DNA of 58,302 nucleotides. It comes from a virus (lineage: Duplodnaviria > Caudoviricetes). The translations under genes were made by a program, and so were the position numbers. Position 1 is the stretch's first letter. Each line of letters starts with the position of its first letter. The DNA is taken from IMG/VR virus record IMGVR_UViG_3300024999_000119, positions 1 to 58,302 of that record. The stretch is one strand, 5' to 3'. Positions 1-58,141 of the stretch are shown here, piece after piece. Under the pieces are notes generated by a model. That model was given only the letters and a program-made list of their open reading frames with translations, searched no databases and was not told the origin of the DNA.

Positions 1-175
1 AATCTAATTTCTCTAAGAAATCTTGGAATTGTTTTTCTGTATAATTAACTTTGAGTAATATAGTTTTCTTATTGATATAGTTACCATCTGTATAGTAACT
101 AATATATGCACATTTGATTGTGCTTTTAATTCTTTTATCATTTACAAATAAAAGGAATTCTTCTTTTGCATTCAT
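1..175 (-). CDS. 5' part of a conserved phage hypothetical protein (MNAKEEFL...KCAYI...FLEKLD), cut by the window start
   Basis: AGGAG RBS upstream; ATG at 175; open to position 1 (translated by hand). Confidence 0.75.
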   Translation of the reverse strand, partial: MNAKEEFLLFVNDKRIKSTIKCAYISYYTDGNYINKKTILLKVNYTEKQFQDFLEKLD

Positions 176-196
176 TTCTTTCTCCTTAAAATAAAA

Positions 197-224
197 AGAG
201 CCAATATTCTCATATTGACTCTCT
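197..224 (-). terminator. Probable intrinsic terminator/hairpin
   Basis: Minus strand agagtcaata..tattggctct followed by T tract, downstream of 228..644. Confidence 0.45.
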
Positions 225-227
225 ATG

Positions 228-644
228 TTAAATTGTAATTCTAATTGTTTCATTTGTTGGGATGTTATCTTTAGCAAAGTTATCTAAAGCTATGAATTCT
301 TCAACTAACTTTATAATATTTTGTATCTCTGCCATTGCATTACTTTTTACTTTAGAAGATATTTCTTCTGGGTTGATTGTTAATACTGCAATTTTGTTAT
401 CTTCATAATATTTCTCTTCAGAATAATCTTTGTTTTCATCACTTCGAACCCAAATCTTTTCATTTCTAGAAACTAGAAATGCTAATAATTCATCATTAGG
501 CTCTTTAAACCAAAATATAACAGTAGCATAAAACATTGGTATATATTGGTTACTGTTATCATATACCCATTTATAGGTATATTCTATTTTAGCATTCAAT
601 ATCACATTAAACTTTTCTGCTGTTTCCTTTATCTTCTTTCCCAT
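228..644 (-). CDS. Hypothetical protein
   Basis: ORF track 228..668; GGAG RBS favours ATG at 644 (MGKK). Confidence 0.7.
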   Translation of the reverse strand: MGKKIKETAEKFNVILNAKIEYTYKWVYDNSNQYIPMFYATVIFWFKEPNDELLAFLVSRNEKIWVRSDENKDYSEEKYYEDNKIAVLTINPEEISSKVKSNAMAEIQNIIKLVEEFIALDNFAKDNIPTNETIRITI

Positions 645-645
645 T

Positions 646-831
646 TCATTTCTCCATTTTAAATCCAAAGTGTTCTAACTCTAATTCTGCTTCTTTAGCT
701 AAAAGAGTTCTATAACTATTATTTGGATTAGATTGATTGAATGTTATTATTCTATTCTCTATAGAATTTAAATCTTTCTTTATTCTATTAAGATTGAATT
801 TAATCTTATTAATTCTATTCTTATTTTTCAT
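646..831 (-). CDS. Hypothetical coiled-coil protein
   Basis: 61-aa ORF, collinear with neighbours. Confidence 0.55.
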   Translation of the reverse strand: MKNKNRINKIKFNLNRIKKDLNSIENRIITFNQSNPNNSYRTLLAKEAELELEHFGFKMEK

Positions 832-874
832 TTTTTTAACCTTTATGATTAGATTAAGTGAGGATAAAATAAAA

Positions 875-909
875 AAGCTATATCGTAATTTTATTCACAA
901 TATAGCTTT
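875..909 (-). terminator. Intrinsic terminator after 934..1332
   Basis: aaagctatat...atatagcttt inverted repeat with T tract on the minus strand. Confidence 0.6.
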
Positions 910-933
910 CATTATTTATTATTTAGGAATCTT

Positions 934-1332
934 TTATTTCATTAGACTCAATAAACTATCTAATGTACTAGCATCAATAGCATTATCTACATCAACTCTT
1001 TCACTTATTTTCACTAAATTGATATAGCTTTTCATTTCACTACCATCTGCATTAAACTTTCCAGAATTATTCTTTCCACTAATAACTTGATAACCTTTTG
1101 CTGTTACATAATCACCAGTTCCAGTAAGATCCTTTGTCAATATTTCAATAGCATCTGTTAATTCATGCACATTACTGGCAAGTCTATATCTTGGTTGACT
1201 CAATTGCACAACCTCTCCAGTTTCTTTATTAACATATTCTGACTGAAATTTTAACTTTCTATTTCCTTTTTCTGCTTCTGTTATCATTGCTGATAAAATA
1301 CTCTCAACTTTTGTTTTTAATTCTTGATTCAT
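934..1332 (-). CDS. Hypothetical early protein, paralogue of 2479..2865
   Basis: AGGAG RBS; shares QPRY, YQVI, KFNxDGSEMKSxINLxKISERV with 2479..2865. Confidence 0.85.
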   Translation of the reverse strand: MNQELKTKVESILSAMITEAEKGNRKLKFQSEYVNKETGEVVQLSQPRYRLASNVHELTDAIEILTKDLTGTGDYVTAKGYQVISGKNNSGKFNADGSEMKSYINLVKISERVDVDNAIDASTLDSLLSLMK

Positions 1333-1381
1333 GACTATTTCTCCTATAGATATTATATAAAATTATTTAAGATGCTTGAAT

Positions 1382-1466
1382 CCCAAACACCAAAAAAGGA
1401 CATACCCAAACCAAAAGGAAAAGAAATACCTGAAAGAGGACAACACCAAAAGACAAGAGAAAAAGA
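1382..1466 (-). promoter_or_regulatory. A-depleted leader with TGGGTATGT core, copy 1 (candidate phage-RNAP promoter)
   Basis: 1387-1409 matches 2913-2935 at 21/23; only 3 A in 85 nt of the sense strand. Confidence 0.55.
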
Positions 1467-1776
1467 TAAGTCTGTGTTGTATTGTTTATAATGTCAACTA
1501 ATTTTGATGTGTATGAATAGGTATATGTGTGTGTATGGATAGATGAGAAAGATGAGCTAAATGAGAATATTCGATGTAAAATATCAAATACAATGTATCA
1601 AATACTATATATAGGGAAGAGATAAAAGAGATGTTCTCAGAACCTTAAAGGAAGGGTAAAAAAGATTAGAATATGAGCTAAAAATAAATCTTTTTTTAGG
1701 GTAAAATTAAATTAACTGCACTCTAGGAGAAAGTTATTTTGTAAATACTGCTAATTATGGATAGTTATATCTTAAC

Positions 1777-1805
1777 TTGACTATGTTTATAGTTATTCTT
1801 ATATT
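1777..1805 (+). promoter_or_regulatory. Sigma70-type promoter
   Basis: TTGACT-17 nt-TATATT upstream of RBS and ATG 1857. Confidence 0.65.
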
Positions 1806-1856
1806 ACTGTATAAAAATTGAAATTAAATGTAAACAACTATAAAAGGAGTAAAGTT

Positions 1857-15285: not shown

Positions 15286-16098
15286 GTGAGTGAAATGGAG
15301 AGGAAAGAATTTTTTAAGGCTTTTATTCGAGTTGTAAAATCTATTGCTATTCACAGCGATTATTACGGATTTGACACAGTAGAAGTTATTAGAGAGCCGC
15401 TAATTGAAGCAAAAGATAAAAATGAGGTAAAACAGATATTATTAAAAAAATATCCTCAATTTTTCCAAAATGGGAAGGTTTATGAAAAAGAGACCAAAGA
15501 CCAAGCACAATTTTTTTATGTTGTTATTTTCCCTTTATATCAACACGAAATCGAACTTATAAAAGAAGGCGAATGGAAATGTGATTATTGCGGACATGTC
15601 CACGAAAACAAATATTTATCAAGACCGTTAGCAAGTAGAAAGTTTGTTGGTAAAATATTTTGTGGTAGTGATTACAAAACTGGAAATAATATTGTTTCCG
15701 CACCTGACTGTTATGAACGATGGAAAAAAGAAGTTGCTTTTAAAGATGTTGATTTGCCTGATGATTTGAATTACATAAATGTTGATAGTTTAAATTATAT
15801 ATACAAAATAACTGAAAAATCTACAGATAAAAGCTATATTGGTAAAACGAGAAATGCACCATTTTTTAGGTGGTGGAATCATCTAACTCATTCCAGTAGT
15901 CCTTTTGGAATATATTTAAGACAAACAAAATTAAGTGATTGGACTTTTGAAGTATTAAAAGAGCTTCCAGCAGATATTGCAAATAGCGAAGTATTTAAAA
16001 TTGAATCAGAATACATACAAAAGTTTGATAGTATTAATAATGGCTTTAATTCTTTGATCAGCTATAAAGCTGTTTATGAAATTGTAACTATTGATTAA
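15286..16098 (+). CDS. Zn-finger plus C-terminal GIY-YIG nuclease
   Basis: CDYC..FC..C; YIYKITEKSTDKSYIGKT, RWWNH, IESEYI, GFN. Confidence 0.75.
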   Translation: MSEMERKEFFKAFIRVVKSIAIHSDYYGFDTVEVIREPLIEAKDKNEVKQILLKKYPQFFQNGKVYEKETKDQAQFFYVVIFPLYQHEIELIKEGEWKCDYCGHVHENKYLSRPLASRKFVGKIFCGSDYKTGNNIVSAPDCYERWKKEVAFKDVDLPDDLNYINVDSLNYIYKITEKSTDKSYIGKTRNAPFFRWWNHLTHSSSPFGIYLRQTKLSDWTFEVLKELPADIANSEVFKIESEYIQKFDSINNGFNSLISYKAVYEIVTID

Positions 16099-32859: not shown

Positions 32860-33171
32860 ATGAAAGATTTAACTGGAACTGGACACAAATATGAACTTCA
32901 ATCGTTTGAAAATGGGAAACCACAAGTACTCCAATTTATAGAAAAAGCACATATTGCAGATGGCTCTATTGAACTAAGAACAGTAAATGATGGTACTACA
33001 AATGAAGAAGTTCTCAAAATGTTAATTGACAGAGCTACTAAATTAAACCAAAAATTTGCGAGTAGAGAAGGCTCTTTGGCTATAACAAAAATGGAAGAAG
33101 CCTTAATGTGGTTTAATAAAAGAACTGAAAATCGTATTGTGAGAAATGTAGAAGGTAAACACACCAATTAA
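32860..33171 (+). CDS. tad1: Tad1-like anti-defence nucleotide sponge
   Basis: H.Y, G..NEEVL..LIDR, SREGSLAITKMEEALMWFNKRTENRIVRNVEG matches the Tad1 C-terminal pattern SRE..A.T..EEALMW.N.R...R..RNV.G. Confidence 0.75.
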   Translation: MKDLTGTGHKYELQSFENGKPQVLQFIEKAHIADGSIELRTVNDGTTNEEVLKMLIDRATKLNQKFASREGSLAITKMEEALMWFNKRTENRIVRNVEGKHTN

Positions 33172-37281: not shown

Positions 37282-37721
37282 TGCTATTATTTAAACATAA
37301 TGTAGCTAGCACAAAAGAATTTGAGAGATTAGAAAGAAAGATTGATAGAAAAATTAAAGTTATTGAATCTGTAACTGCTAATAGTTCTACAACCAATTCT
37401 ATATCTTCCAATTTAAGCACTCTAGGAAGCTCTACAAGCTCATCAAATGCCATAAGGGTATCAAACGTTAGCTCTTCACCTTATAGTGTCTTAGATAGCG
37501 ATAATGTGATATTATGCAATACAAATACAAAAGATATAACAATCAATTTACCTTTGATATTTGTAGTAAAAGAATTGGTTATAAAAAAGATAAGTGATAA
37601 TTATACTGTTATAGTTAAACCATATTATGGAAATAAAATAGATGAATTAGACTCAGTATCTATAACAGCAAAATCATCTATAAAAATAGTTTCTTATGGG
37701 ACTAATTGGTGGATAATATGA
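37281..37721 (+). CDS. Tail-associated protein
   Basis: DNVILCNT..ITINLP..KK..GTNWWII module. Confidence 0.6.
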   Translation: MLLFKHNVASTKEFERLERKIDRKIKVIESVTANSSTTNSISSNLSTLGSSTSSSNAIRVSNVSSSPYSVLDSDNVILCNTNTKDITINLPLIFVVKELVIKKISDNYTVIVKPYYGNKIDELDSVSITAKSSIKIVSYGTNWWII

Positions 37722-39403
37722 GTTATATAGAAAGACTTCAAATAGGAGAAGTCTCAAATAAGAATTCTACATCTGCTTTATTGAAAGCTAATGGAGTTTT
37801 TACTGGTAAATGGGAAGATGTATCTAATTATAATTCTGTTATAATAGGAATTAAAGTAGATAAGAATAGTGCAACAGATGGACTATCTATCCAATGGAGT
37901 TCTAATGGTACTACTATGTGTGATTCTGATAGTTATACTATACTTGCTAATATAGGAAAAGTATTCACGTTTACACCAGCAAGAAAGTATATTAGAGTTG
38001 TATATACAAATGGTACTGTAGATTTAACTTCTTGTGGTATTCAAACTATATATAAACAAGGTGGTATTAAAGCATCATCACATAGAATTAATGATGCTAT
38101 TGTAGCAGAAGATGATGCAGAATTAGTTAAGTCTGTTTTAACTGGAATGAATGATAAAGGATATTTTGATAATGCAAAGATGTCTAATAAAGGTAATCTA
38201 AAAGTTAGTCTAGATGAATATGGAGATACTCCTTCGATAGATCCATTTGATAGATTAAGAGTATCAACACCATATACAATATTTGATTCTAAACAATTGC
38301 ATGATTCTCAACCTTTATTTTGGGATGAAGAAACAAGTGCAGGACCATCTACACATATTGCTGTTGATGCTTGTACAAGAATGGCAGTTAGTGCTACACC
38401 TGGAGAATATGCTGTTAGACAAACAAAACAAAGATTTAATTATCAACCTGGAAAAGGAAGTCTAATATTATTGACGTATTATGGTGAACAAGTAGATGGC
38501 ATTAGGAAAAGATTAGGTATTTTTGACGGTACAAGTGCAGACTATCTAATACCAAATAATGGGATATTCTTTGAAACAGATGGTACATTATCTTGGAATA
38601 TTTGCAAGAATGGGACTATAACAGAAAGTGTATCTCAATCTAATTGGAATGTAGATAAATTAGATGGTACTGGAGTTAGTGGAGTAACTTATAATGCTAA
38701 TTCAGCTCAAATAGCATTGATAGATTTTGAATGGTTAGGAGTTGGTAGAGTTAGAGTAGGATTTGTTATTGATGGTATAATTAGATATGTACATTATTTT
38801 AATCATGCTAATGATACATCATTTGACAGTGTTTATATGTCAACACCAAACTTACCATTAAGATATTCTATTGAAAATTTAACTGGAGAATATGACGATA
38901 CATTTGATCATATATGTTCAACTGTTATAAGCGAAGGTGGATTAGAAGAAACTGGTATATTGAGAAGTATAGATAATGGTTCAACTCATTTGAATGCTGA
39001 TGTTGTCGGGACTACTTATGCTTTATTAGGAATTAAGTTAAAAGCATTATATAACGATATTACAGTTACACCAAAGAAAATATCATTATTAAGTTTAACT
39101 AATGATGGATTTAAATGGTCATTGAAATTGAATCCTGTAGTTGCTGGTACATTCACATATTCTGATTTAACTTATAGTGCAGTACAATATGCTATTGGAG
39201 TTACTGCTAATACTGTTACTGGTGGATTAGATATAAGTAGTGGTTATGTTAGTGTTGCTAGTGGAGTTACAGAAGATTTAACAACAGCATTAAGAATGGG
39301 AAGTACAATAAGTGGTAGTATCGATAGTTTAGTATTATGTGTTACTCCACTTTCTGCTAATGCTGATATATTAGGAAGTTTAACTTTTAGAGAATTATTA
39401 TAA
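37718..39403 (+). CDS. Virion structural/tail protein
   Basis: DPFDRLRVSTPYTIFDS, YQPGK, DFEWLGVGRVRVGF, NLPLRY. Confidence 0.7.
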   Translation: MSYIERLQIGEVSNKNSTSALLKANGVFTGKWEDVSNYNSVIIGIKVDKNSATDGLSIQWSSNGTTMCDSDSYTILANIGKVFTFTPARKYIRVVYTNGTVDLTSCGIQTIYKQGGIKASSHRINDAIVAEDDAELVKSVLTGMNDKGYFDNAKMSNKGNLKVSLDEYGDTPSIDPFDRLRVSTPYTIFDSKQLHDSQPLFWDEETSAGPSTHIAVDACTRMAVSATPGEYAVRQTKQRFNYQPGKGSLILLTYYGEQVDGIRKRLGIFDGTSADYLIPNNGIFFETDGTLSWNICKNGTITESVSQSNWNVDKLDGTGVSGVTYNANSAQIALIDFEWLGVGRVRVGFVIDGIIRYVHYFNHANDTSFDSVYMSTPNLPLRYSIENLTGEYDDTFDHICSTVISEGGLEETGILRSIDNGSTHLNADVVGTTYALLGIKLKALYNDITVTPKKISLLSLTNDGFKWSLKLNPVVAGTFTYSDLTYSAVQYAIGVTANTVTGGLDISSGYVSVASGVTEDLTTALRMGSTISGSIDSLVLCVTPLSANADILGSLTFRELL

Positions 39404-41526: not shown

Positions 41527-44500
41527 ATGAGTGATTTAAGAAATGATATTTTTTCTTTATTAAAAGAAAAGAAAGTTTTGAAAAGTGATTATTCTATTGA
41601 TACATTTAAAGAGAAGTTATCTTCATCAGAGAATACTGATTTAATATATGATGTTTTGGGTGGTGGTACAATTCCTAAAGAAGAGTTTTATCATTTAGTT
41701 AATCCAGAATCTAGTCAAGATGCTATTGCACAAAGACACAATACTCCATTAGAAGGAATGAATTGGTTTCTTCAAGCTGCTACTTATATTGGTGATAATG
41801 TTGTTGCTGGTATAGAGAAGGTATCTGGTGCTTCAATTAATCCAGGTTCAGCAGATAGAGCTTCTGATATAAATCAACATTTTGCTATGGCAACTGAAGG
41901 AATGTTTAAGAACTCTTGGGATTATGCTAAAACTGTTGGTTTAACTGTAGTGCGAGATAGTTTTGATAGTCCCTTTACCATATTAGATAAAGCTTTAGGA
42001 ATAGAGAAAAAACAAACAGCTAATAAAGATGAATCAAAAATTATGGTTGAAAAAGAATTAGCTAATTCTTATGAAAACATACATAACACTAATACTAAAA
42101 TTAGAAATGAATATATTGCTACTGGAAAGATAGATCCTAAATCTACTAGTATAATGGCTAGTTTAATGGATTCTGCTCCTGCTACTGTAGCAAGTCTTGC
42201 ATTAAGTTACTTTACAAAGAGTCCTAAAGCTTCTATGGCAATGTTTATGGTTGAAAGTGGTGGTAGAACTGGTGCAGACTTTTATGCTGAAACTGCAAAG
42301 AGAAAAGAAGATGGTTCTTTGATACCAAATACTGGTAATGTTGAACATGGTATCTTTGGTACTCATATAGGTATTATTGCTGGTTTAGTAGAAGGTGGTA
42401 CTGGTTTTGAGCATTATGCTGCTAAATTAGGTACTAAACTTGCTGGTAAACAGATTGCTGAAGCTACTGCTGGTATTACAAAGAATGCAATGCTTAAGAA
42501 GATGGCTTATAATAACTTAAAAGATTATGCATTAAATTCTGTTGGTGAAGGTTTAGAAGAGGTAGTACAAGGTGGATTAGAGCAATGGGGAAAGAACTAT
42601 CTTGATTTAAGAAATGGGTATGATCTCAATCAATTAAAAGATGGGTTCTTACAGGGAGCATTTGGTGGTTTAATATTAGGTGGAGGAATGCAAACTGTAT
42701 CTTTTGCTAGTGACTACAAAAAAACAAAAGCAATACAAGAAACAGTAGAAAAAGTATTAGATAAAAAAGAAAAGTTAAAACAAGCATTAAAGACTGACAA
42801 AAATATATCTCCAGAAGAGAAAAAGAAATTAGAAGATAAACTTAAAGAAGAACAAAGACTCTTAAAGTTGTTATCAGAAGCTTCCCCAGAAGAGTTTGGA
42901 ATGCATGCTAGTAATTTAGTCCATACTGTTACGTCTTCAATGGAGATTATGAAAAGGAATTCTGAAGCATATACTGCTTTTATGCAACATAAAACTAATT
43001 TATATAATGCAGAGATAGAAAAAGGTTATAATGAAAATACTTATACTAATTTAATGGAATCAGAAGAGGAAGGTAGATTAGCAAAGTTATCTGCTGAAAG
43101 TAGCAAAAGATTTAGAACATTAACAGAAAAGTTTAGAGAAGAAAGAAAGAATGATGAAGAGTTTAAGAAACTTAGTGATAAAGAACAGAATGAAGTTATT
43201 AATGCATTAGCACATACACATTTATTAAATGGTACTGATTCTGCTGAATATAAAAAGTTATCTGAAAAAGCTAAAGAATTAAAATCAATTAAAGATAAGA
43301 AACAAGAGAAGAAAGATTTAACTCCAGATGATAAAATTGAGATAATGAAGTTAGGAAAAGAATTGACTAAAATTAGTCAAGAAGCATTTGATTTATTTAA
43401 TCCTATACATCACGAAATGTTATCACAAGGTTTAACAGATGCTAATATTCTTAAATATAGTACAAAAGAAGAGATAGATAATGCTCAACAGCAAATAGAT
43501 GTATATAATGAAAATCAGAAAAGAGTACCTACTATAAAAGAAGATATTAAACCAGAAGTGATGGTTAACAAAACTGTTGATTTATCAAAAGTTTTGGAAA
43601 GTTCTAATCCAAAAGTAAATAAGACTAAACCTGAACTTCAAAAAGAAGCTAAAGATTTAGGTATTGTACCAGAGAAGAAAAACAAAGTAGAATTACAAGA
43701 AGCTATAGATAATAAAAAGAATGAAATTCAATCTAATATTTATAATGCTGGTGATGAAGAACAAATAGTTAACCCAGAGGTTACATCTAATGAAGAAGGG
43801 ACTATTACATTAAGCGATGATCAATTAAACCAATTGCAGAGTTTAATGGATGCAGAAAAGAATAAATCTAATACTAAAATAGATGGTTCTGAATTTGGTG
43901 AAGATGGTGAAGGTAATAAACCTATATCTAAAACAGATAAACCACAAGATGTATTTGAAGAATCTGATTCTGAATTTATTGAAAGAAGAAGACAATATGC
44001 TAGGCAAGAAGTAATTGATGGTAAAGGTATTTATGCTGTTATAGGAGATAATACATACGTTTCTATTGATAATAGATTTACAGTTAACTCTAAGACTGGT
44101 GAATTGATAAAAGATAAAAAGTTATTAGAAGAAATAAAAGCCAAGGGAAAGAGATATGAAGCTAAAGATAAATCAGTAGATACTCAAAATACTTCTTCTG
44201 ATGCTGTTGAAATTATAACAAATATTTTGTCAAAAGAAACATGGAATGAAGCTGCTACTTGTAGTGGAACAGCATGTTATGATGTTAGTGATAAAATTAT
44301 AAGCGTTTTATCTAATAATAACATTAAAGCTGTTAAAATGGATGTTAATGCTCAACAGTTAGATAAAAATGGAAATCCTGCATCTAAAACTGGTGATCAT
44401 AGATTAACAGTTATCGAATATAATGGTGAATTTTATATAGCAGAAATACCACAACCAGCATATTTAACATATGATACTAAAAATGGAACTATTGCTTTTA

Positions 44501-47500
44501 AAAAAGGAATAGAACTGAAATCTCTTAAACCAATAGTTTATCCTTTTTCTGAATGGATAAATAGGAATAAACCTGACAATGTATATTATCCTGAAATAGA
44601 AGGAATAGAAAGAAATATTGAGAACATAAAACAATATATTCCATTGTTAGAAAGAAGAGTGTCCGAAAGATTAGCAGAAGTTCAAAATTCAAATGGGAAA
44701 CTTCCTTTTATAGTTAAAAAATATAATAAAGCTAAAGATGAGCTAGATAGAGCTTTAAATGCTCTACAATCGGATAATACTTCTAACCTTATACAAAGTA
44801 TGGGTAAGGAGGAGAAAGTGTCACTACAAGGCTCTATGGACGTTATATATACTTCTGTAGGTGGTCATTTGATGGAGATTCAAAGTAATCTACATGAATT
44901 GAAAGATGGTGATGTTTTAACAGCAGAAAAACTACCAAATGATATAGGTGCAACAAATATAAAGACTGGACTTGTTTATCCTTATTTTCTAAGAATTGTA
45001 GGACAGAATGGTAAAAATTATGGTGGTATTCCTTTTGGTTCTGTTGCAGATAAAGAAATATCAGATATGATTGACAATGGAAAAGAAGTACAGATACATG
45101 TTGTTAAATCTAAACTTAGTTCTTTTGATTTTACTTATAGTGCTAAAGAATCTATAGTTCCAATAGAAAATCCAATTAGTGATTTGAATTTTAAGACTAT
45201 TGCTGATTATGCTTCATCTTTAGCTGAACTTCAAGATGTCAATCCTAATTTAGTGAATTTAATTAAAACTTCTTTAGGTAATGTTCAAGTTGTTTCTGCT
45301 ACTCCAGAAACTGTTATCAACAGCAATGGTGATTTAATGGGTACTAGAAAAGCATTATTAAGCAAAGATAATGGAGTTTATACTATATATGTTAATATGG
45401 AAAAGACTAATGGCAGAGAAGGTAATTCCATTATACACGAAGGATTACATAAATTCTTGAGAGATTCTTTAGATATAAAAGGGGTAGATAATAAAGGTAA
45501 TAGCACATACAATAAAGAATTTGATTTAGATTTAAGAGCAATGGTTAAAGAGATTGAAAAACAAATATCTAATACTGAATTTTATAGAAAGAATAAAAGT
45601 GATTTAGATAGAATATTTGATTTAAATTCTTTTAGAAGATTAGGGTTAAAAGAAGATCAGATTGCTAATAGACAAGCTGAAGAGTTCTTAGCTCATGTAT
45701 TTTCCGGTACATCTTCTCTTAGAGGTTGGATGGAAAGAACTAGTGTTAATGTTGGAGAGGATTCAGATACATGGTTTGGAGCATTCAAGAGAATATTGTT
45801 AAAGATATTTAAGAAAAGAACAGATAGCTTTACTTATTTGAATTATTTAGAATCTATATTTGATTATAGATTAAATACTAATATAAGTGAAATTATGGGT
45901 GAAGTTAATGAGTCTTTAATGGAAGAAAGTAATGATGATTCTTTAACTGATATAGAAAAGATAAATAAGTCTGCTGAAACATTAGATAATCCACATGTTA
46001 TAGTAGATGCTGTTGGTATGATAGCTCCAAATGAATTAGATGCTATTGCTTATGTACAAACATTATCACAAGGTGAATTTGAATCTCAATTGTTTTCAAA
46101 TGAAGATTGGTTAAAATCATCTTCTTTTAGTTTTGAAAGTGAAATAGAAAATAATCCTGGAAAGAGCCATATAACATTAGATAAGTTTAGAAAACACTTA
46201 GCTGTTAATATGTGGAGAAGAGCTAATTCAATGATGAGAGTTCCTACTATAAGACTTAAAATGCATGGTAAAGGAGAGAAGAGATTCTTAACTGTACAAG
46301 AATTAGGTGTTATACATAAAGATAAGAATAATGTTATTAATTATGGATGGACTGAAAAGAATAAGTTACAAGAAAGAAATAAACAAATAGGTAGAATATT
46401 AGGTCAGAATACTGAATTAGTTTATATAGATGCAGTGGAGTTTTATAATGGTAGTTTTGGTGATGTATCTAAACAAGATAATAAATTATTAGCAGAGAAT
46501 TTATATAATAAAGGATATTTATATCTAGGTAGATTTGCTGATAAGAATACATTTGCTGCTATTAAATTAGAAAACCTAGAAGAAGCTAAAGTTAAATTAG
46601 CACAATTAAATTTATTATATACACAAAAAGCATCACAATGTTTTCAACAATTATTTCAAGAATTCCAAGAAGGTAAAAGCAAATACCCAATTAGTTTAGA
46701 GGAAGTTCAGAAAGTAACTAATACTGCTGGTGATATTACAAATGTTGCTAGAGCTTTAGTTGAAGATTTTAAATTAGGTGCTACTATTGATGAAGATGGT
46801 AATCTTAATTCTGTATTATATAATCCTAATTTTTCTGATACTTTTGATTTAATTAAGATATTCAAAAGAACATTAGATGTTGTTGAACAAACTGCAACTC
46901 CTACAGAAATAGATGAAGCTATAGATAAATTAGATGAAAAGAGTGGCATAGTAGTTAATGGTAAAGGAGAAGTTGATGTTAGAACTGCAATATTTGATGC
47001 CAAGAATAGTAGTGCAAAACAAACTGTTACTATTGGTGATAGAGAGATAGAATTTAATTTAATGGATATATTGATAAATGAATTAGGTACTGAAACTACA
47101 GATGGTGTTGTTATATCAAGAAGAGATGGATTCAATAAGTTTTATAGAGAAATACATGCAGAACTATATGATACTCCAGTTAAAGCTATAATAACTAATA
47201 ATAGTAAAGGAGATTTTTCTACTCCATTTTTAGGTAAGATGGCTATTCATACAACTAATTCAGATGCATTAGAAGCTTGGATGAGAGAAAACAATATAGC
47301 TTTGCTTATGTCTTCTTCTGCTGTTAAAGTCAACTTAGATTTAAACAAGATAAATGATAATGGAGAGAAAGGTTCAATAGGGTATGCTAATAGTGACTTG
47401 TTAGGAATAGCACAAACATTTAATATACCATTAAACAATATTTATCGTCAAGGACAAAAGAAAGGTGTAAAAGATAATGCTAAAGGATTGGCTCAATCAT

Positions 47501-50500
47501 TTACATCTAATTTAACTGTAGGAGAGAATGAGATATTCTTTGATAATGGTGGTATTAAACAATTCATTGATGAATTGCTCTCTTCTTTAGTTGAAAGTTT
47601 TGAAAAGGATATGGGCAATTTAGATGAAACTAAACTAATTAAAGAACTAATTAGACTATCTAGAGAGTCAACTAATCCACTGACTTCATCTCTTGCTAAT
47701 ATTGCTGTTCAATCTGTATTACTTGAAGGAGATATTAATTTAATAAATAAATTAAATGATATTAAAGATGTTGATAATGTTGTTAAACAAGATAACTATT
47801 TAGAAATAACCAAACTATTGAAAAAAAGGGGGATGGAAACATCTGGTATATTCTATTCACCAATGTTTTCTGATTTTGTATCTTCTTATATTAAAGAAAG
47901 TTTATCTAAAATATATACATTCAAAGCTCCAGCTTCTTGGGTTGTATTGTCTCCAGATTTAGGTTTCTTAGAAGAAACTAATATTCAAGGAATATTTGAT
48001 CATATTCAAAAAGAAAAATTTCCATTAAGAAAGTCTATTGATAAATTAAATAATACTATCAAAGAATTAAATGATGAAAAAGAGAAGTTAGCTAGTTATT
48101 TAGATGGTAGTAAATCTGATAAATTCATTTTAGATGCTATAGATGATATAAATGAATCTATTAAGAAGAATGAAGGATGGTTAGAAAAAACTTCCAAAGT
48201 TGAAGATGTTGATAAAATGAATAAAGAAACTTGGAAAGAATTAGAAAAGATTATAGATGTTAAAAATGGTAGATTAAAAGAAGGTTATGGTTTAATATCT
48301 AAAGAATATTATGAGAAGTTTCCAATTCTAAAAAGAATGAATAAAGCGATAGTTACTGCTGTTCCTTCGGATGGTATATCAGCACAACAAGGTGTATATC
48401 TATTTCCTATTGAGACTGGAGATGAAAATATAATTAAATTGAATTCAGAACATACACAATCAAAAGTAGGAAAAGATTTTGATATTGATGTTATGAATAT
48501 ATTGTTTCCAGATGCAAGATATTTTTCTAATGATGCTTTTAATAAATATTTTGATTCTATAAATGGTTCTAATAAGAATTTAGATAAAGTATCAGCAAAG
48601 GTATATGGCAAAGTATTAGGTAAAAAGTTTAAGAATGAAGATGGTAGCATAGATCTAAAAGATTTATATTCTATGAAGACTAGATTAGAGTTTATGCAAA
48701 AGTTATTTGGAGAGAAGAAACAATCAAAAGAAGTTGAAGATTTATTGTTTGGAAGAAAAGTATTCTCTTTGATACATGATTCTTCTCCACTTCTTGATAA
48801 GTTTCAGAAATTGATTGGTATTGCAATCAATATGAGAAAAGTATTAACTATTAAAAGTGAATTAGGAATGCAATCTCAAATTGGTGGTGTAGATGTAGGA
48901 ACTGGTGATATAACACTAGCATATCTTGCATTAATGGTTTACACTAATGATATGGTTGATATTCCTACTAATACTAATGGATTATTCTATTCTTTGACTC
49001 CAGCTAAACTATATGCAAAGATTTATGGTATCTCTAAAGAATCTGCTGAAATAGCTTATGCTGTTGATAATGCGTTATTTAGATATGCTTATCAAATATC
49101 TTCTCAAAGGAATGTAGATTCTTTTACTGATGATTATTCTTTAAGTGATACTATCAAATACATTAAAAATCAAAAGAAGATTAATACTGCAATTAGCAAT
49201 AGTGATTTATCTACTCTTACTTCTTTTGTAATGAAAGAAGTAGCAGAAAGTTTAGATGAAAAACTAACTGCAGAACAAGAGAATTTGGTATATGAATATT
49301 TAGATAATGCTAGATTTTCTAATAGTGTTATGGATTCTGCTGCTCTTAAATCTGTCGAATTAATAGATACATCTATAATAAGAAACTTTGATGTTTCTCC
49401 TAAGCAAAATCAATCTTGGAATAGAGATATTATGTATGCATTCGCTAATAACTCAAAACATATTCCAATAGAAGTTAGAGAAATGATTGCTCTTATTAAT
49501 GAAAAAACTAAGAAATTAGTTGATGAGAAGAGTCCTTATTTAGAAGGATATAATTTCCTTGCATCTGAATTAGTGAAGACTACAGACCAAGAGTATAATG
49601 CTAAAATAGATAGAGCTAAAGCAATAAACACAAAGGTTGAATTAGCTATGCTAACTAGTATAGATGATACATTGGATTGGGCTAGATGGGTAGTAGCAGC
49701 ATATCTTAATCCAGTATCTATGACCAATAATCAATATGCCAATAATAAAGATGGTAAGATAAATGTAATCAAATTGAATATGAAAGCTAATAGATTTGGT
49801 ATTCAACAAGCTCTTCCTGGATTAATGTTAAAAGCTATTAATAGAGAATTAGTACCAAATGAGAATGCTAAAGTAGGACAATCAGTTTCTGTTAGAATTG
49901 ATGGTGTTACTATAAAATTTGAATTAACTAAATACAATAAGATTTCAATAACTTATGAAGGTAAAGCAGTAAAGCATTATTATAGAAATACATTGGAATT
50001 ACAAGAATCTGCTAGAAAAGGTGATAGAATAGCTAATCTTTTATTGACTAAAGCTGATACAGTAGCATTAAAGAATGAATATGCTTTAAGTAATCTAATA
50101 GATTTTAAGAAATCAACTTCTGGTGAAGATAAGTTTGAATTAGCTTCTAATTATTTAAATAAATTGATTAAAGAACGTGCTATCGACAGAGATGGTGCTA
50201 CTTTATTGTTCATATCTTTAGTTGGTGGTACTTCTGAAGGTAGTTCCTTTATGTTCAATTTAGACCATGAAAAAATAAATGAGAATGATTCTCCTACAAA
50301 CAAAACTTTATTGAGATTAGCAGCGAATACAAGATATGGAAGAGACTTCTTACAAGCATTTGCATCTATTTCTACTGAATCATTTAATGATAGTGGAATA
50401 GGAACTTCTACAAGAGTATCTAGGTCAATACAAGAAAGTAATGATATAGAAGTATGGGAAGAAGATGGCAAAATAGATGAAGGTAATAAATATATTGCTG

Positions 50501-53500
50501 ATAATATTACAGTAAATAATTATGAAGATTTAGGAAGTTTTCTTAGAGAAGATTATATATATAATATTATCAGAGATTCAAAAGTATTTATTGATGATGA
50601 TAATCCTTTGTTTTCTGTATTTAATTTTAATACTGGTAATGAAGATGTTCTGACTGCTAATTCTGTATATAACAGCACAATATTTAGACCTATTAAATTT
50701 CCTAAAAATAGAGATAAAGTTAAATTGGAGAATTTGTATCTAACTAAGATGGAAGAAATCAATAAACTTCATAAGAGTATGGAAACAAACCAAATTGTTA
50801 TCAATAGAAACATATCTCTTAGATTAGATGCTGTTATGGATCATCCTAGTGGACTTGTAGCTAAAGCAGTCAACTTTATTACAAAGAGAAGACAACAGAA
50901 AATAGAGAAAGAAACTTTTACAAAGAATGTAATAAGATTAGTGGAAGAGAATCCTTTGAATATTTCTGTTAAAACTACATATAAAAATGGAATGTACAGT
51001 TACACATTTGCTCTAACTAACAGCAAAAAAGAAAGAGTATCTGACATAAATGAATCTGAATTAGAAAATGTTATTGGTAATGAAATAAATAAACTTAAAA
51101 ATCCTAAAGAGTACCATACAATGTTAGCTTCTATTGAATTTATGAAAATGAATGCATTAGAAGTCAGATATAAAACAAATTTATCTGGATTCATTGATAG
51201 GTATGTTAATTCTTATAGGAATTTCTCTCATAGTGAAATAGTAGAATCTATTGCTGAAAAGTATAGAAGAATAGTTTCTGCTAAACCATATAGTTATCCA
51301 CATTATTATACGAAAGAAGCAATATTAGAAGTTCTTAAAAAGAATGTTGATTCTAAGTATAAAAAGAATACTGAAGAAGAGAAAGCTAATTTAGTTAAGA
51401 AATTATTTGATAAATTAACTAGAGTTGGTGAATATTATAATGGTAATGATGTATTTGATAAAGATAAATTGTATATCCAAGATTCATTTGTACCACATCA
51501 ATTAGCATCAAATAAACTGTTTACTTCACTTAAAAGTGATTTAACTTCTTTATATTGGTTAGAATATGAAACAGAAGCTATAAATAGAGGACAAGATAAA
51601 ATAATTGTCAATAGAATGAAACAGCATTTTGCTATGAATGCTGGTTATACTATGTTATCAAAAGAGAATAAATCTATTTCTAAAGTTAAGAAAGATGATA
51701 TGATTAGCTTCTATACTTATGGTCAGAAATCAGATGAAAAAATAAACTTAATAGTAGAAAAGAAAACTGATAATGGAATTTTTGGTAAGATAGATAAAGA
51801 AGTATATCTCAATACTCTTAATATGAAAATCAAATATTATGATATGCTATTAGATAAAGGATATGATGTTATAGTAACTGAAGAATTATTATATTATTAC
51901 AAAGAGTTATATGCTAAAGGAATAATAAACATTCCAAATCCACCAAAATCTGGAAAAGATTTATTATATGCAGTCTCGTCAGGATTAAAGATTGAAGTAT
52001 CAGATGAACAATTATTAGGTAGTTATTTAACATCAAGAATATTTATAAAACAAAGAGATAGCAAAGGTAACTTTATAAATATTAAAGGTGTAGAATCAAC
52101 TAAAAAGAATACTATATGGGATAAATTAGCTACAATATGGTTAACTGCTATGAGTGGTAGTATATTGGGTACAATAGTACCTGCAATAAGCAATTACATT
52201 GATGGTTATTGGTCATTGATGAATACTTTAGGTAAAACTACTATGTTGAAAGCATCATTATATGGTGGTAAGTTATCTGATGTTAATTTAGTTAAAGCTG
52301 CAAAGAATATTATAAATGAACCTACATCTCAAGGTGGATTCAAAGAATATATGGAATTAGCTGATACTCCTATCAATAGTGTGAATATAGAAGATAGAAT
52401 GGAAGTTAAGAAGCTAATTAAAGCTCATGTTATTAGATATGCTCTTCAAGAAGGATTAGTATCTTTATCTTCATTAGAAAGTAAAGATAGAAGAGTGATG
52501 CAACAAATATTAGAGAATGGTGTACAGAGTGCTGATTTTGAAAAAGCATTAGCTATTCTAACTAAGATTACTGGTGTATTAACTAGTCCTTTTGCTAAAG
52601 CTGAACAAACTATAAGATTAAAAGCTGCATATTCATTTGCATTCAAAGCTATTGTATTGGATGGTAAAACTAATTCAAATCAAATTAGAACAGAGATAGA
52701 GAATGGTGTAGCATTGACTCAAGGTTTATATGGTCAATTATATCGTAGAACTCAAGAAAGACATTCTGCTGGTAAAGTTGCAATGCAATTCCATCAATAT
52801 ACAGCATTCCAAAAGATTGTGTTTAAGTCTGATAAAGAGTTAATGAAAGAATTGAATCAAACTTGGGCTAATATATGGAGAGTAGATGGTAAGAGTCCAA
52901 TAGCAGCATTCTTTAAAGGTGGTACAGTCAATGGTGAAATTAATATGGCTAGAACTAGAGCAAGAAGATATGCTTATGATTATACTATAGGTGTTGGATT
53001 GATGACATTGTTTCCAGGAATGAGAGTAGGTAATCCTTTAATAAGAGTATCTATAATGGCATTAAGAATGTTATTAACAGCATTAGTTAATGGTAACGAT
53101 CCAGAGCCTAAAGAAGTTAAATCTTTGTTATTTGCTTTTGTTTCTTTGTTTGCTGGTTTAGGAATTTCTCTTCCTACATTTATGGTTTATAATATTATAA
53201 ATGATGAAGATAATATTGTAGATTTACATCCTAGAGCAACATCAATAATGATGAATATATGGGATATGATTGATAGAGATACAGCTAAAAATAATAGAAG
53301 TGAAATATTGCAATCTAATAAAGATTGGGCTAAAGTTGAGAAATCATTTATATTTGGGTTCAATCTATTTGCAGCCAACTATTTCACTTATGGAACAAAA
53401 GAACAAGAAGATTGGGCTAGAAGGAACATAGTATCTAAAATTACATATCAATTTGAAGATATGCCTAAGAATACTATTTCAACTGTAGGAGAATTTGTTC

Positions 53501-53553
53501 CTATATTGAATCTAATAAATGAAAAAAGAATTGAGAAATATAAAGGATATTAA
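41527..53553 (+). CDS. Giant polyvalent ejection protein with virion two-barrel (crAss-like) RNA polymerase
   Basis: GKDFDID (DFDID at 48475-48489); TDG, PVK, LGK, SSAVKV; HEGLH..EEF zincin; EGLEEVVQ N-terminal ejection motif. Confidence 0.8.
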   Translation: MSDLRNDIFSLLKEKKVLKSDYSIDTFKEKLSSSENTDLIYDVLGGGTIPKEEFYHLVNPESSQDAIAQRHNTPLEGMNWFLQAATYIGDNVVAGIEKVSGASINPGSADRASDINQHFAMATEGMFKNSWDYAKTVGLTVVRDSFDSPFTILDKALGIEKKQTANKDESKIMVEKELANSYENIHNTNTKIRNEYIATGKIDPKSTSIMASLMDSAPATVASLALSYFTKSPKASMAMFMVESGGRTGADFYAETAKRKEDGSLIPNTGNVEHGIFGTHIGIIAGLVEGGTGFEHYAAKLGTKLAGKQIAEATAGITKNAMLKKMAYNNLKDYALNSVGEGLEEVVQGGLEQWGKNYLDLRNGYDLNQLKDGFLQGAFGGLILGGGMQTVSFASDYKKTKAIQETVEKVLDKKEKLKQALKTDKNISPEEKKKLEDKLKEEQRLLKLLSEASPEEFGMHASNLVHTVTSSMEIMKRNSEAYTAFMQHKTNLYNAEIEKGYNENTYTNLMESEEEGRLAKLSAESSKRFRTLTEKFREERKNDEEFKKLSDKEQNEVINALAHTHLLNGTDSAEYKKLSEKAKELKSIKDKKQEKKDLTPDDKIEIMKLGKELTKISQEAFDLFNPIHHEMLSQGLTDANILKYSTKEEIDNAQQQIDVYNENQKRVPTIKEDIKPEVMVNKTVDLSKVLESSNPKVNKTKPELQKEAKDLGIVPEKKNKVELQEAIDNKKNEIQSNIYNAGDEEQIVNPEVTSNEEGTITLSDDQLNQLQSLMDAEKNKSNTKIDGSEFGEDGEGNKPISKTDKPQDVFEESDSEFIERRRQYARQEVIDGKGIYAVIGDNTYVSIDNRFTVNSKTGELIKDKKLLEEIKAKGKRYEAKDKSVDTQNTSSDAVEIITNILSKETWNEAATCSGTACYDVSDKIISVLSNNNIKAVKMDVNAQQLDKNGNPASKTGDHRLTVIEYNGEFYIAEIPQPAYLTYDTKNGTIAFKKGIELKSLKPIVYPFSEWINRNKPDNVYYPEIEGIERNIENIKQYIPLLERRVSERLAEVQNSNGKLPFIVKKYNKAKDELDRALNALQSDNTSNLIQSMGKEEKVSLQGSMDVIYTSVGGHLMEIQSNLHELKDGDVLTAEKLPNDIGATNIKTGLVYPYFLRIVGQNGKNYGGIPFGSVADKEISDMIDNGKEVQIHVVKSKLSSFDFTYSAKESIVPIENPISDLNFKTIADYASSLAELQDVNPNLVNLIKTSLGNVQVVSATPETVINSNGDLMGTRKALLSKDNGVYTIYVNMEKTNGREGNSIIHEGLHKFLRDSLDIKGVDNKGNSTYNKEFDLDLRAMVKEIEKQISNTEFYRKNKSDLDRIFDLNSFRRLGLKEDQIANRQAEEFLAHVFSGTSSLRGWMERTSVNVGEDSDTWFGAFKRILLKIFKKRTDSFTYLNYLESIFDYRLNTNISEIMGEVNESLMEESNDDSLTDIEKINKSAETLDNPHVIVDAVGMIAPNELDAIAYVQTLSQGEFESQLFSNEDWLKSSSFSFESEIENNPGKSHITLDKFRKHLAVNMWRRANSMMRVPTIRLKMHGKGEKRFLTVQELGVIHKDKNNVINYGWTEKNKLQERNKQIGRILGQNTELVYIDAVEFYNGSFGDVSKQDNKLLAENLYNKGYLYLGRFADKNTFAAIKLENLEEAKVKLAQLNLLYTQKASQCFQQLFQEFQEGKSKYPISLEEVQKVTNTAGDITNVARALVEDFKLGATIDEDGNLNSVLYNPNFSDTFDLIKIFKRTLDVVEQTATPTEIDEAIDKLDEKSGIVVNGKGEVDVRTAIFDAKNSSAKQTVTIGDREIEFNLMDILINELGTETTDGVVISRRDGFNKFYREIHAELYDTPVKAIITNNSKGDFSTPFLGKMAIHTTNSDALEAWMRENNIALLMSSSAVKVNLDLNKINDNGEKGSIGYANSDLLGIAQTFNIPLNNIYRQGQKKGVKDNAKGLAQSFTSNLTVGENEIFFDNGGIKQFIDELLSSLVESFEKDMGNLDETKLIKELIRLSRESTNPLTSSLANIAVQSVLLEGDINLINKLNDIKDVDNVVKQDNYLEITKLLKKRGMETSGIFYSPMFSDFVSSYIKESLSKIYTFKAPASWVVLSPDLGFLEETNIQGIFDHIQKEKFPLRKSIDKLNNTIKELNDEKEKLASYLDGSKSDKFILDAIDDINESIKKNEGWLEKTSKVEDVDKMNKETWKELEKIIDVKNGRLKEGYGLISKEYYEKFPILKRMNKAIVTAVPSDGISAQQGVYLFPIETGDENIIKLNSEHTQSKVGKDFDIDVMNILFPDARYFSNDAFNKYFDSINGSNKNLDKVSAKVYGKVLGKKFKNEDGSIDLKDLYSMKTRLEFMQKLFGEKKQSKEVEDLLFGRKVFSLIHDSSPLLDKFQKLIGIAINMRKVLTIKSELGMQSQIGGVDVGTGDITLAYLALMVYTNDMVDIPTNTNGLFYSLTPAKLYAKIYGISKESAEIAYAVDNALFRYAYQISSQRNVDSFTDDYSLSDTIKYIKNQKKINTAISNSDLSTLTSFVMKEVAESLDEKLTAEQENLVYEYLDNARFSNSVMDSAALKSVELIDTSIIRNFDVSPKQNQSWNRDIMYAFANNSKHIPIEVREMIALINEKTKKLVDEKSPYLEGYNFLASELVKTTDQEYNAKIDRAKAINTKVELAMLTSIDDTLDWARWVVAAYLNPVSMTNNQYANNKDGKINVIKLNMKANRFGIQQALPGLMLKAINRELVPNENAKVGQSVSVRIDGVTIKFELTKYNKISITYEGKAVKHYYRNTLELQESARKGDRIANLLLTKADTVALKNEYALSNLIDFKKSTSGEDKFELASNYLNKLIKERAIDRDGATLLFISLVGGTSEGSSFMFNLDHEKINENDSPTNKTLLRLAANTRYGRDFLQAFASISTESFNDSGIGTSTRVSRSIQESNDIEVWEEDGKIDEGNKYIADNITVNNYEDLGSFLREDYIYNIIRDSKVFIDDDNPLFSVFNFNTGNEDVLTANSVYNSTIFRPIKFPKNRDKVKLENLYLTKMEEINKLHKSMETNQIVINRNISLRLDAVMDHPSGLVAKAVNFITKRRQQKIEKETFTKNVIRLVEENPLNISVKTTYKNGMYSYTFALTNSKKERVSDINESELENVIGNEINKLKNPKEYHTMLASIEFMKMNALEVRYKTNLSGFIDRYVNSYRNFSHSEIVESIAEKYRRIVSAKPYSYPHYYTKEAILEVLKKNVDSKYKKNTEEEKANLVKKLFDKLTRVGEYYNGNDVFDKDKLYIQDSFVPHQLASNKLFTSLKSDLTSLYWLEYETEAINRGQDKIIVNRMKQHFAMNAGYTMLSKENKSISKVKKDDMISFYTYGQKSDEKINLIVEKKTDNGIFGKIDKEVYLNTLNMKIKYYDMLLDKGYDVIVTEELLYYYKELYAKGIINIPNPPKSGKDLLYAVSSGLKIEVSDEQLLGSYLTSRIFIKQRDSKGNFINIKGVESTKKNTIWDKLATIWLTAMSGSILGTIVPAISNYIDGYWSLMNTLGKTTMLKASLYGGKLSDVNLVKAAKNIINEPTSQGGFKEYMELADTPINSVNIEDRMEVKKLIKAHVIRYALQEGLVSLSSLESKDRRVMQQILENGVQSADFEKALAILTKITGVLTSPFAKAEQTIRLKAAYSFAFKAIVLDGKTNSNQIRTEIENGVALTQGLYGQLYRRTQERHSAGKVAMQFHQYTAFQKIVFKSDKELMKELNQTWANIWRVDGKSPIAAFFKGGTVNGEINMARTRARRYAYDYTIGVGLMTLFPGMRVGNPLIRVSIMALRMLLTALVNGNDPEPKEVKSLLFAFVSLFAGLGISLPTFMVYNIINDEDNIVDLHPRATSIMMNIWDMIDRDTAKNNRSEILQSNKDWAKVEKSFIFGFNLFAANYFTYGTKEQEDWARRNIVSKITYQFEDMPKNTISTVGEFVPILNLINEKRIEKYKGY
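44741..44850. repeat. Dispersed element, copy D (in frame inside the giant gene)
   Basis: gctctacaatc (44761-44771) equals 12361-12371; tatgggta..gagaaagtgtc as in copy B. Confidence 0.6.
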
Positions 53554-55513: not shown

Positions 55514-56035
55514 ATGGATACAGTAGATATACCAGGTTATGAAGGTTATTATAAGATTACTCCAGATGGTTCAGTACATAGTGTTAGAAAAAATAGATGG
55601 TTAAAACCTGGTTTCCGTAACAGAATAAGTAGAAATGGCAAGAAAGGTAATACCGTAAAGCAAGTTCATCTAAGTGTAAAACCTGAAGGTATGAAATGTT
55701 ATAACATAGGAAGATTAGTAGCTCTTTCTTTTATACCAAATCCCAATAATTATCCACAAATAAATCATATAGACGGAGACTCATCTAATAATACGATTGA
55801 GAATATTGAATGGTGTACTCAAAGCCAAAATATTAAACATGCTTATGACAATGAACTTATGACTCCAAATAGAGGTAGAAGAAAGAACTCAAAAAGAGAA
55901 CAAAATATACATTTAACTAAAAATAACAAATATACAGTTGCTGTTACCCATAAATATAAAGTATATTCTCTTGGAACTTACGAAAATATTGGAGATGCAG
56001 TAAAAGCAAGAGATAATTTTATTAATAGTTTATAA
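55514..56035 (+). CDS. NUMOD4-HNH-AP2-like homing endonuclease
   Basis: IPGYEGYYKIT..G.V; QINHIDGDSSNN..ENIEW; LGTYENIGDAVKARD. Confidence 0.85.
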   Translation: MDTVDIPGYEGYYKITPDGSVHSVRKNRWLKPGFRNRISRNGKKGNTVKQVHLSVKPEGMKCYNIGRLVALSFIPNPNNYPQINHIDGDSSNNTIENIEWCTQSQNIKHAYDNELMTPNRGRRKNSKREQNIHLTKNNKYTVAVTHKYKVYSLGTYENIGDAVKARDNFINSL

Positions 56036-57374: not shown

Positions 57375-57995
57375 TTATATATCTTTCCAAGTTTTATTAT
57401 TTAATACATCAGAAATAATACGTGGTGAGATAGAATAAGCTATTGCTAATTCTTTTTGTTTAATTTCCGGTATAAGTAGTTTTATATTTCTAATTTCATT
57501 AACAAAATCCCAGTTTAATTTTGTGGTTCTTCGGTTTTGACTATTTGTAGCAATAGTAACCCATCTACAATTATCTGGTGTATAATTTTTGTTGTTATCA
57601 ATTCTATCAATTTGTAAACCTTTTTCCCATCCATTTGCTATACTCCAGTTCAAAAAAGTATTTATCGACATATTCCATTCTTCGCAAACCGAAATTCCAC
57701 GTTCACCATAATATTTGTAGTTCTTACTATTTGAATTATTACATCTATCTTTCATCTTGATCCATGTATCATATAATGCATGTTGACGAAAGCCATGTTT
57801 TATACGATTACATCCACAACTGTTTGCTTTCCTAGTTTTGGCATCCGCTATTATAGTTTCAAATTCTTTTCCACAATGACATTTAAATCTTGCTTTTCTT
57901 ACTATCTTGCCAGAATAGATATATGGTTCAATTTCACATAAAAAAGTTAAATTATTGATAATTTGATTTGGTTGGTATTCAATTTTTGCAGGCAT
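57375..57995 (-). CDS. HNH-type homing endonuclease
   Basis: CHCG, SCGC, WIKMKDRC, YGERGISVCEEW, IDRIDNNKNYTPDNCRW; GGAG RBS before MPAK. Confidence 0.85.
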   Translation of the reverse strand: MPAKIEYQPNQIINNLTFLCEIEPYIYSGKIVRKARFKCHCGKEFETIIADAKTRKANSCGCNRIKHGFRQHALYDTWIKMKDRCNNSNSKNYKYYGERGISVCEEWNMSINTFLNWSIANGWEKGLQIDRIDNNKNYTPDNCRWVTIATNSQNRRTTKLNWDFVNEIRNIKLLIPEIKQKELAIAYSISPRIISDVLNNKTWKDI

Positions 57996-58028
57996 GATAA
58001 ACTCCGTATTTATTTGTTCCGTAATATT

Positions 58029-58086
58029 AAAGCAAGAAACGGATTCGGAATATCCGCTTATCGAGTTGCAATCTCTATCTTGCTTT
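58029..58086 (-). ncRNA. Candidate structured 5' leader of the HNH gene
   Basis: 9-bp closing stem aaagcaaga/tcttgcttt enclosing two small hairpins, just downstream of TTGAAA-17-TATATT. Confidence 0.4.
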
Positions 58087-58141
58087 GTAAATATACTAAA
58101 TACATTAACTAATTTCAATTTTATGCTTTTAGCTTACCATC

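Follow-up and report, generated by a model that had tools for sequence, protein, structure and literature searches.

Does a phage-encoded polymerase do without the arginine by which enzymes of its kind tell nucleoside triphosphates (NTPs) from 2'-deoxynucleoside triphosphates (dNTPs), and if so, what does it make? The question is raised by a giant open reading frame (ORF), P0001, of a 58,302-nucleotide (nt) virus record with 29% G+C (Caudoviricetes; IMG/VR record IMGVR_UViG_3300024999_000119), the whole of which was analysed and is called the window here. A preliminary description, made from the letters alone, had taken the product for a two-barrel polymerase in which an alanine, A2278, stands in the place of Escherichia coli beta' R425, and had gone on to consider relaxed sugar selectivity or even DNA synthesis in a phage with no DNA polymerase gene. 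The features on which the argument turns are as follows (aa, amino acids).

41527..53553 (+): giant ORF P0001, 4008 aa, flanked by virion genes and the large terminase
46735..49392 (+): predicted two-barrel polymerase core, aa 1737-2622 (AlphaFold2 model, Foldseek and VIA)
46864..47328 (+): predicted first barrel (beta-like), with nearly invariant K1780, R1781, D1859, G1860, K1886, K1904 and K1934
48343..48375 (+): Pro-gate (selectivity-motif) strand and loop, K2273-AIVTAVPSDG-2283, with A2278 in the putative place of the arginine and P2280 invariant
48472..48489 (+): K2316 (48472-48474) followed by the catalytic D2317-F-D2319-I-D2321 (DFDID, 48475-48489), the Asp triad invariant

The Pro-gate site and its arginine

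According to the literature, two-barrel RNA polymerases (RNAPs) conserve the Pro-gate Arg universally or strictly and use it as their main selector of NTPs over dNTPs (PMC7862312; PMC7708050). In E. coli beta' it is R425, the main determinant of sugar selectivity (PMC7862312); in QDE-1 it is R962, which bonds the 2'-OH of both the NTP and the 3' end (PMC9508822). The only other two-barrel enzyme said to be without it is PolD, which reads GLAPHT there (PMC7708050). The statements of the preliminary description that R425 favours NTPs, and that PolD has LAPH at the equivalent place, agree with these accounts.

Translation of the ORF places IVTAVPSDG at aa 2275-2283 (nt 48349-48375), with the A2278 codon (gct) at 48358-48360 and P2280, two residues on in the numbering, at 48364-48366; A2278 lies 39 residues before D2317. 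From composition, only 0.04 occurrences of DFDxD would be expected by chance in the giant protein. In E. coli beta' (NC_000913), N-R425-A-P427 precedes D460-FDGD and R425 is 35 residues from D460, while in gp66 of phage phi14:2 (NC_021806, g066), Y-R1322-I-P precedes D1361-FDID at a distance, from R1322 to D1361, of 39 residues, equal to that in the window. The motif positions first given for the window, the NRAP of beta' with its spacing and the RIP of crAss-like enzymes were thus all borne out by the sequences. The same 39 residues separate the Pro-gate from the first Asp in 118 of 119 scored proteins of the gp66 family (38 in the remaining one; P0038 was unscored).

Profile comparisons point to the same correspondence. 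An hhalign alignment of a profile of the window protein's clade (defined below) with a 40-sequence gp66-family profile (E 1.4e-4, probability 52%) was seeded in the first barrel and, when extended, lays 'vvPSds..S' on 'RIPNQGlSS' and 'NSEyiQt.vGKDFDID' on 'YtEItTKTGSDFDID', with P2280 on gp66 P1324. Against solved structures, a profile of 25 segments of 120 aa (alignment A4) has P23-45 gp96 as its sole polymerase match (E 0.0074), with 'tvvPsd' on 'FRNPVM' and 'GkDFDiD' on 'GVDFDGD'. A strand terminates at or beside A2278 in both AlphaFold2 models (core and isolated barrel, below). The alignments, together with the domain-level superposition of the models, support the proposal that A2278 occupies the place of gp66 R1322, of the Arg in gp96 'FRNP' and of beta' R425. 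For the trigger-loop residue that contacts the sugar (QDE-1 D1116, beta' Q929) no counterpart was mapped, the profile alignment being unreliable there.

The alanine is not peculiar to one assembly: the identical-cluster giant protein occurs on six contigs, of up to 58,437 nt, and loss of the Arg extends across the clade. An exhaustive phmmer search with aa 1701-2900 against 1.84 billion representatives gave 33 proteins at E <= 0.001, mostly of 3500-4760 aa. The site is spanned by 29 of these, all with D-x-D-x-D; the other four are fragments that end earlier. The residue two before the Pro is not Arg in 28 of the 29 (I, V, A, M, L, F or N), and the residue directly before the first Asp (position -1) is Lys or Arg in 28; P0029 alone has Arg at the former position, and has Glu at the latter. 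Six further relatives (P0156, P0157 and the giant ORFs of records L004-L007) have I, L, A, V, V and V in place of the Arg and a Lys or Arg at -1 in each case, so that the Arg is missing in 35 of 36 clade sequences overall. D2317, D2319 and D2321 are invariant in alignments A3, A4 and A5, P2280 is invariant or nearly so, and the nearly invariant K1886, K1904 and K1934 fall within the stretch that aligns to the first barrel of the gp66 family and are candidates for the basic b-motif lysines (beta K1065/K1073).

The gp66 family differs at both positions. Among the best 120 of 1523 matches, all 120 have Arg at the Pro-gate and all 120 have Ser at -1, within Y-R-(I/T)-P-N-Q and K-T-G-S before the Asp (120/120), against x-(V/T)-P-(S/T)-D and G-(K/R) in the clade, and TAVPSD and KVGK-DFDID in the window. 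Wherever the Arg is present in the reference enzymes, the -1 residue is non-basic (beta' Ala, gp66 Ser, gp96 Val). The -2 position (beta' N458) is Gly in 34/34 clade rows, and Gly in gp66 as well. The residue after the Pro, which in the window is S2281 and occupies the place of the PolD steric-gate His, is Ser in 17, Thr in 11, Gly in 3 and Leu in 3 of the 34 rows and His in none (0/34), all segments of this tally being distinct, the wrong Pro having been taken in three rows (P0023, P0026 and L006, where Thr follows the true Pro), and P0005 and P0030 being read from the alignment rather than counted.

The aligned proteins show that the Pro-gate Arg has been lost across the clade and replaced by a small or hydrophobic residue, and that a Lys or Arg has been gained before the first Asp. 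P0029, a 273-aa fragment with 'ARIPS', a gp66-like 'AAILPE' and Glu before DFDFD, is possibly a transitional form linking the gp66 family to the Arg-less clade. Four viral-contig loci considered as relatives of P0029 were rejected, all four being one unrelated Cys-rich protein with a chance 'EDFDFDKKRV'. A word-indexed profile search with alignment A1 added three new proteins only; P0158 is without the motif. Another relative, P0013, has DQDID in place of DFDID, a Phe-to-Gln change in the catalytic loop.

A predicted two-barrel fold among known polymerases

The giant ORF has no PHROG match, no Pfam match even at E <= 1 and no phmmer match in the PDB; a tblastn search with aa 2001-3000 against 50,697 phage records found no match, and a word-indexed search returned the protein alone. 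Its classification comes from structure prediction. A model of aa 1730-2700, built by AlphaFold2 with 22 homologues as alignment, has a mean predicted local distance difference test score (pLDDT) of 79.2 and a predicted template modelling score (pTM) of 0.79. Searched against the PDB with Foldseek, it matches gp66 first (6vr4_A, E 2.6e-8), then QDE-1/RDR2 (~1e-4) and beta'/Rpb1 chains (~3e-3). VIA-align superposes it on RDR2 (Z 13.4), QDE-1 (Z 13.3), 6vr4_A (Z 12.8; 593 residues aligned, root-mean-square deviation [rmsd] 4.1, model 8..893 on gp66 866..1818), P74 gp62 and P32 gp64 (Z 11.3-11.4) and P23-45 gp96 (Z 10.5-10.6).

The second barrel was also modelled alone (aa 2222-2366, pLDDT 86.6). 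Compared with all 48,161 PDB representatives with no Foldseek prefilter, its top 13 matches are largest subunits of multisubunit RNAPs or their phage AR9/PhiKZ equivalents (Z 7.1-9.4; e.g., 5fj8_A, Z 9.2, rmsd 2.9, 101 aligned). The match to QDE-1 (Z 3.9) sets model 26..131 on chain 927..1030, a stretch that contains both R962 and the Asp loop. Foldseek found nothing for the isolated barrel at E <= 0.001 (best E 3.9e-3), the top 13 rows above that value being RNAP largest subunits or plastid/cyanobacterial equivalents. PolD is not among the structural matches listed by Foldseek or VIA. Judged by these predicted structures, the giant protein is, as first proposed, a two-barrel polymerase, with two double-psi beta-barrel domains forming one core.

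One insertion within the second barrel stands out in the model.

47962..48252 (+): predicted helical hairpin of ~97 aa in the second barrel, aa 2146-2242 (model DSSP: helices 417-513 between strands 407-413 and 525-529)

It separates strands one and two of the barrel, and its VIA-align matches are all to coiled coils, the dynein stalk for example.

Among known systems, the closest parallel is gp66 (phi14:2, 6VR4; Crassvirales), likewise a giant single chain encoded among virion genes, with DFDID and the 39-residue spacing. The clade protein is, however, nearly double the length of gp66, and its genome is ~59 kb against ~100 kb for gp66 phages. QDE-1 and RDR2 (7Y7P, 7W82) share the two-barrel architecture in one chain, at an identity of ~10%, but QDE-1, unlike the window protein, retains the Pro-gate Arg R962. 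On beta'/Rpb1 (RxPxLH, NADFDGD) the second barrel superposes, and the gate Pro and Asp triad are kept, with Thr or Ser after the Pro; relative to beta', R425 is replaced by Ala, N458 by Gly and A459 by Lys, the fourth motif residue is Ile rather than Gly, and both barrels reside in one chain. Two further phage groups have one-chain two-barrel polymerases, P23-45 gp96 (a tape-measure-fused virion RNAP; 8H2M/8H2N) and the gp64-type non-virion RNAPs (8F5M, 8F72), of which gp96 differs from the clade in retaining the Arg (FRNP), with Val before the Asp motif. The paper on the P23-45 polymerase makes no mention of arginine, ribose or dNTPs, and neither the present clade nor an Arg-less crAss-type polymerase is described in the literature searched.

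Like the clade, PolD DP2 (GLAPHT, RR-NxDGD) is without the Pro-gate Arg and has its a-motif immediately preceded by a basic residue. In PolD, two Arg precede the a-motif and are thought to contact the incoming nucleotide (PMC7708050), while the clade has a single Lys or Arg at -1 and Gly at -2. The clade also differs from PolD in lacking the His steric gate, and in having Asp rather than Asn as the first a-motif residue.

What the polymerase may make

The Asp triad, the gate Pro and the first-barrel Lys residues have been kept across proteins that are only 21-39% identical, a pattern that shows, as far as alignments can, a conserved and evidently selected two-barrel site. We consider it probable that the clade protein is a working RNA polymerase, delivered by the virion, in which the sugar contacts have been rearranged and discrimination against dNTPs is possibly weaker. 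The Pro-gate Arg (beta' R425, Rpb1 R446, QDE-1 R962, gp66 R1322) has been replaced across the clade with the gate Pro, Asp triad and first-barrel Lys kept; on this reading, the enzyme would still make RNA, its contacts with the incoming nucleotide having been redistributed. K2316, at the position just ahead of the first Asp where the clade specifically has Lys or Arg, is the best candidate for a replacement contact; others are S2281 (the Ser/Thr after the Pro) and the trigger loop. The cost may be a weaker discrimination against dNTPs. This could be tolerated because NTP pools in the cell exceed dNTP pools more than 10-fold (PMC7862312) and the clade has no steric gate; a site without such a gate, facing that excess of NTPs, would therefore mostly make RNA. 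For gp66, activity is reported to require every Asp of DFDID and rNTPs (preprint 10.1101/2020.03.07.982082).

The giant polymerase would be packed in the particle and enter with the DNA for early-gene transcription, the role that gp66 has in phi14:2. We infer virion delivery from the position of the gene, the likeness to gp66 and two other parts of the protein:

45436..45450 (+): HEGLH (HExxH, aa 1304-1308), zincin-like motif on the N-terminal side of the polymerase core, from a sequence scan; H, E and H nearly invariant in alignment A3
53116..53190 (+): hydrophobic, membrane-span-like segment near the C-terminus, aa 3864-3888, from a Kyte-Doolittle scan

The HExxH motif suggests a protease domain fused upstream of the core.

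Several points weigh against a working RNA polymerase with rearranged contacts. Simple loss of the Arg should be costly, because the R425K substitution in E. coli makes binding 17-fold and incorporation 25-fold less selective, and R425L, although it shows no pause before incorporation of dGMP (deoxyguanosine monophosphate), has a strong defect in processive transcription (PMC7862312). The PolD arginines before the a-motif have been proposed to touch the phosphate, not the sugar (PMC7708050); the paper on PolD proofreading makes no statement on R960/R961. That K2316 or S2281 would reach the ribose is a proposal drawn from aligned residues. At the sequence level the likeness to gp66 is weak (hhalign probability 52%; no match by PHROG, Pfam or PDB phmmer), and packaging in the virion, template and product are all argued by analogy with that protein. 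Finally, the covariation between Pro-gate and -1 position amounts essentially to two clades and one 273-aa fragment, i.e., one or two evolutionary events rather than 36 independent ones.

A rather less likely explanation is that the loss is uncompensated, the RNA polymerase being truly relaxed in its sugar selectivity, with appreciable incorporation of deoxynucleoside monophosphates that is tolerated for short early transcripts. The absence of the Arg from 35 of 36 clade sequences would fit, the Arg being a major determinant in multisubunit RNAPs (PMC7862312) and its QDE-1 counterpart bonding the 2'-OH (PMC9508822), as would the Gly at the beta' N458 position in 34/34 rows and the missing steric gate. 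The clade-specific Lys/Arg at -1, however, and the Ser/Thr that is conserved next to the Pro suggest replacement contacts, and YonO, a minimal two-barrel RNAP, is described as a strict NTP user or one with a strong NTP preference (PMC5467207), which suggests that reduced sites can stay selective.

It is unlikely that a conserved Arg from a different segment (R1781, R2437 or others that are nearly invariant) reaches the ribose and leaves the site functionally canonical. Conserved arginines are available for such a role (R13, R52, R708 and R922 in model numbering), but the K1780-R1781 pair aligns to a K-R pair in gp66, and R1781 is thus not a clade-specific replacement.

We regard as very unlikely the suggestion that the enzyme has shifted toward DNA synthesis in the manner of PolD and serves a phage without a DNA polymerase gene of its own. 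The absence of that gene is itself real as far as the PolA, PolB, protein-primed PolB and Pol III alpha families go. The Pfam scan of the 62 window ORFs contains no polymerase family, and a six-frame search with PF00476, PF00136, PF03175 and PF07733 gave 0/5 records for each (the window and four related records, among them a 59,502-nt record carrying direct terminal repeats and another with an estimated completeness of 100%), with positive controls detected. The preliminary description was therefore right that no such gene is present, but in a phage of ~59 kb with its own DnaB-like primase-helicase this absence is nothing unusual. Phages of this size that have a helicase-primase and use the host replisome commonly lack a DNA polymerase gene, and the DnaB-like primase-helicase, Sak4-like and RepL-like genes of the window fit such use.

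The step to DNA synthesis is not supported by the active site either. Two traits are PolD-like, the missing Pro-gate Arg and the basic residue before the a-motif. The PolD steric-gate His is missing, with Ser, Thr, Gly or Leu in 34/34 rows; its mutation in PolD (H931A, the His after the Pro) abolished all discrimination, and an H931A-like site facing an excess of NTPs would mostly take NTPs (PMC7708050). The a-motif begins with Asp, the RNAP residue, where PolD has Asn. There is no candidate for a DP1-like (Mre11-like) partner, no metallophosphatase family being found among the 62 ORFs at E <= 0.001 and the giant ORF itself being without a Pfam match. The neighbours of the gene are also virion genes, and the polymerase is joined to HExxH and hydrophobic parts in the manner of ejected proteins. 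We give equally little credence to the broader proposal that the site has converged on PolD, with Arg lost and a basic residue gained, so that dNTPs would be usable for DNA or mixed polymers. If it were true, the polymerase could prime or copy ~59-kb phage genomes that have no DNA polymerase gene, and would extend two-barrel DNA synthesis beyond Archaea for the first time.

We find it hardly credible that the polymerase part has lost catalysis and that the protein serves purely in structure or ejection. A universally conserved residue is missing, and in the gp66 crystals the DFDID loop had a non-catalytic shape (preprint 10.1101/2020.03.07.982082), but selection on the active site is indicated by the many core positions, with the first-barrel Lys, the gate Pro and the Asp triad among them, that are invariant or nearly so across such divergent proteins.

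The phage genome and the wider meaning of the clade

Based on PHROG and Pfam scans, the genes around the giant ORF encode a P22-like portal, an SU10-like capsid protein, a virion protein and the terminase. The Pfam families found among the 62 window ORFs are RadC, AAA_24/Sak4-like, DnaB-like primase-helicase, Dam, M15 peptidase, RepL-like, P22-like portal and SU10-like capsid. The terminase matches unrelated (Mu-like and other) phages, not Crassvirales, and a tblastn search of phage records with the capsid protein gave no match. A virion structural protein at 37706-39400 (+), phrog_1645, shares 34-35% identity over ~410 aa with structural proteins of the T4-like cyanophages S-RIM8 and S-RIM12.

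CheckV puts the completeness of the window at 53%, probably an underestimate, the phage group being unrepresented. No terminal repeats were detected within the window. It is probably near-complete, since one related record of similar size has direct terminal repeats (L004, 59,502 nt) and another is rated 100% complete (L005, 59,405 nt).

Further ORFs were observed in the window. Among the tail genes, a 103-aa ORF at 32860-33168 (+) has an Acb2/Tad1 hairpin domain (PF24729, E 7.4e-8) and is a candidate sponge for cyclic-nucleotide defence signals. ORFs resembling GIY-YIG and HNH/NUMOD4 homing endonucleases occur at 15286-16095 (+), 55514-56032 (+) and 57375-58115 (-), two of them directly downstream of the large terminase.

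The window and its relatives represent a new group of ~59-kb phages with a crAss-type giant polymerase outside Crassvirales. Which nucleotides this polymerase accepts is a testable question. A natural and evidently selected clade that has no Pro-gate Arg and carries a PolD-like basic residue would show how sugar selection can be rebuilt, and it bears on how the active site of an RNA polymerase might drift toward, or away from, DNA synthesis.

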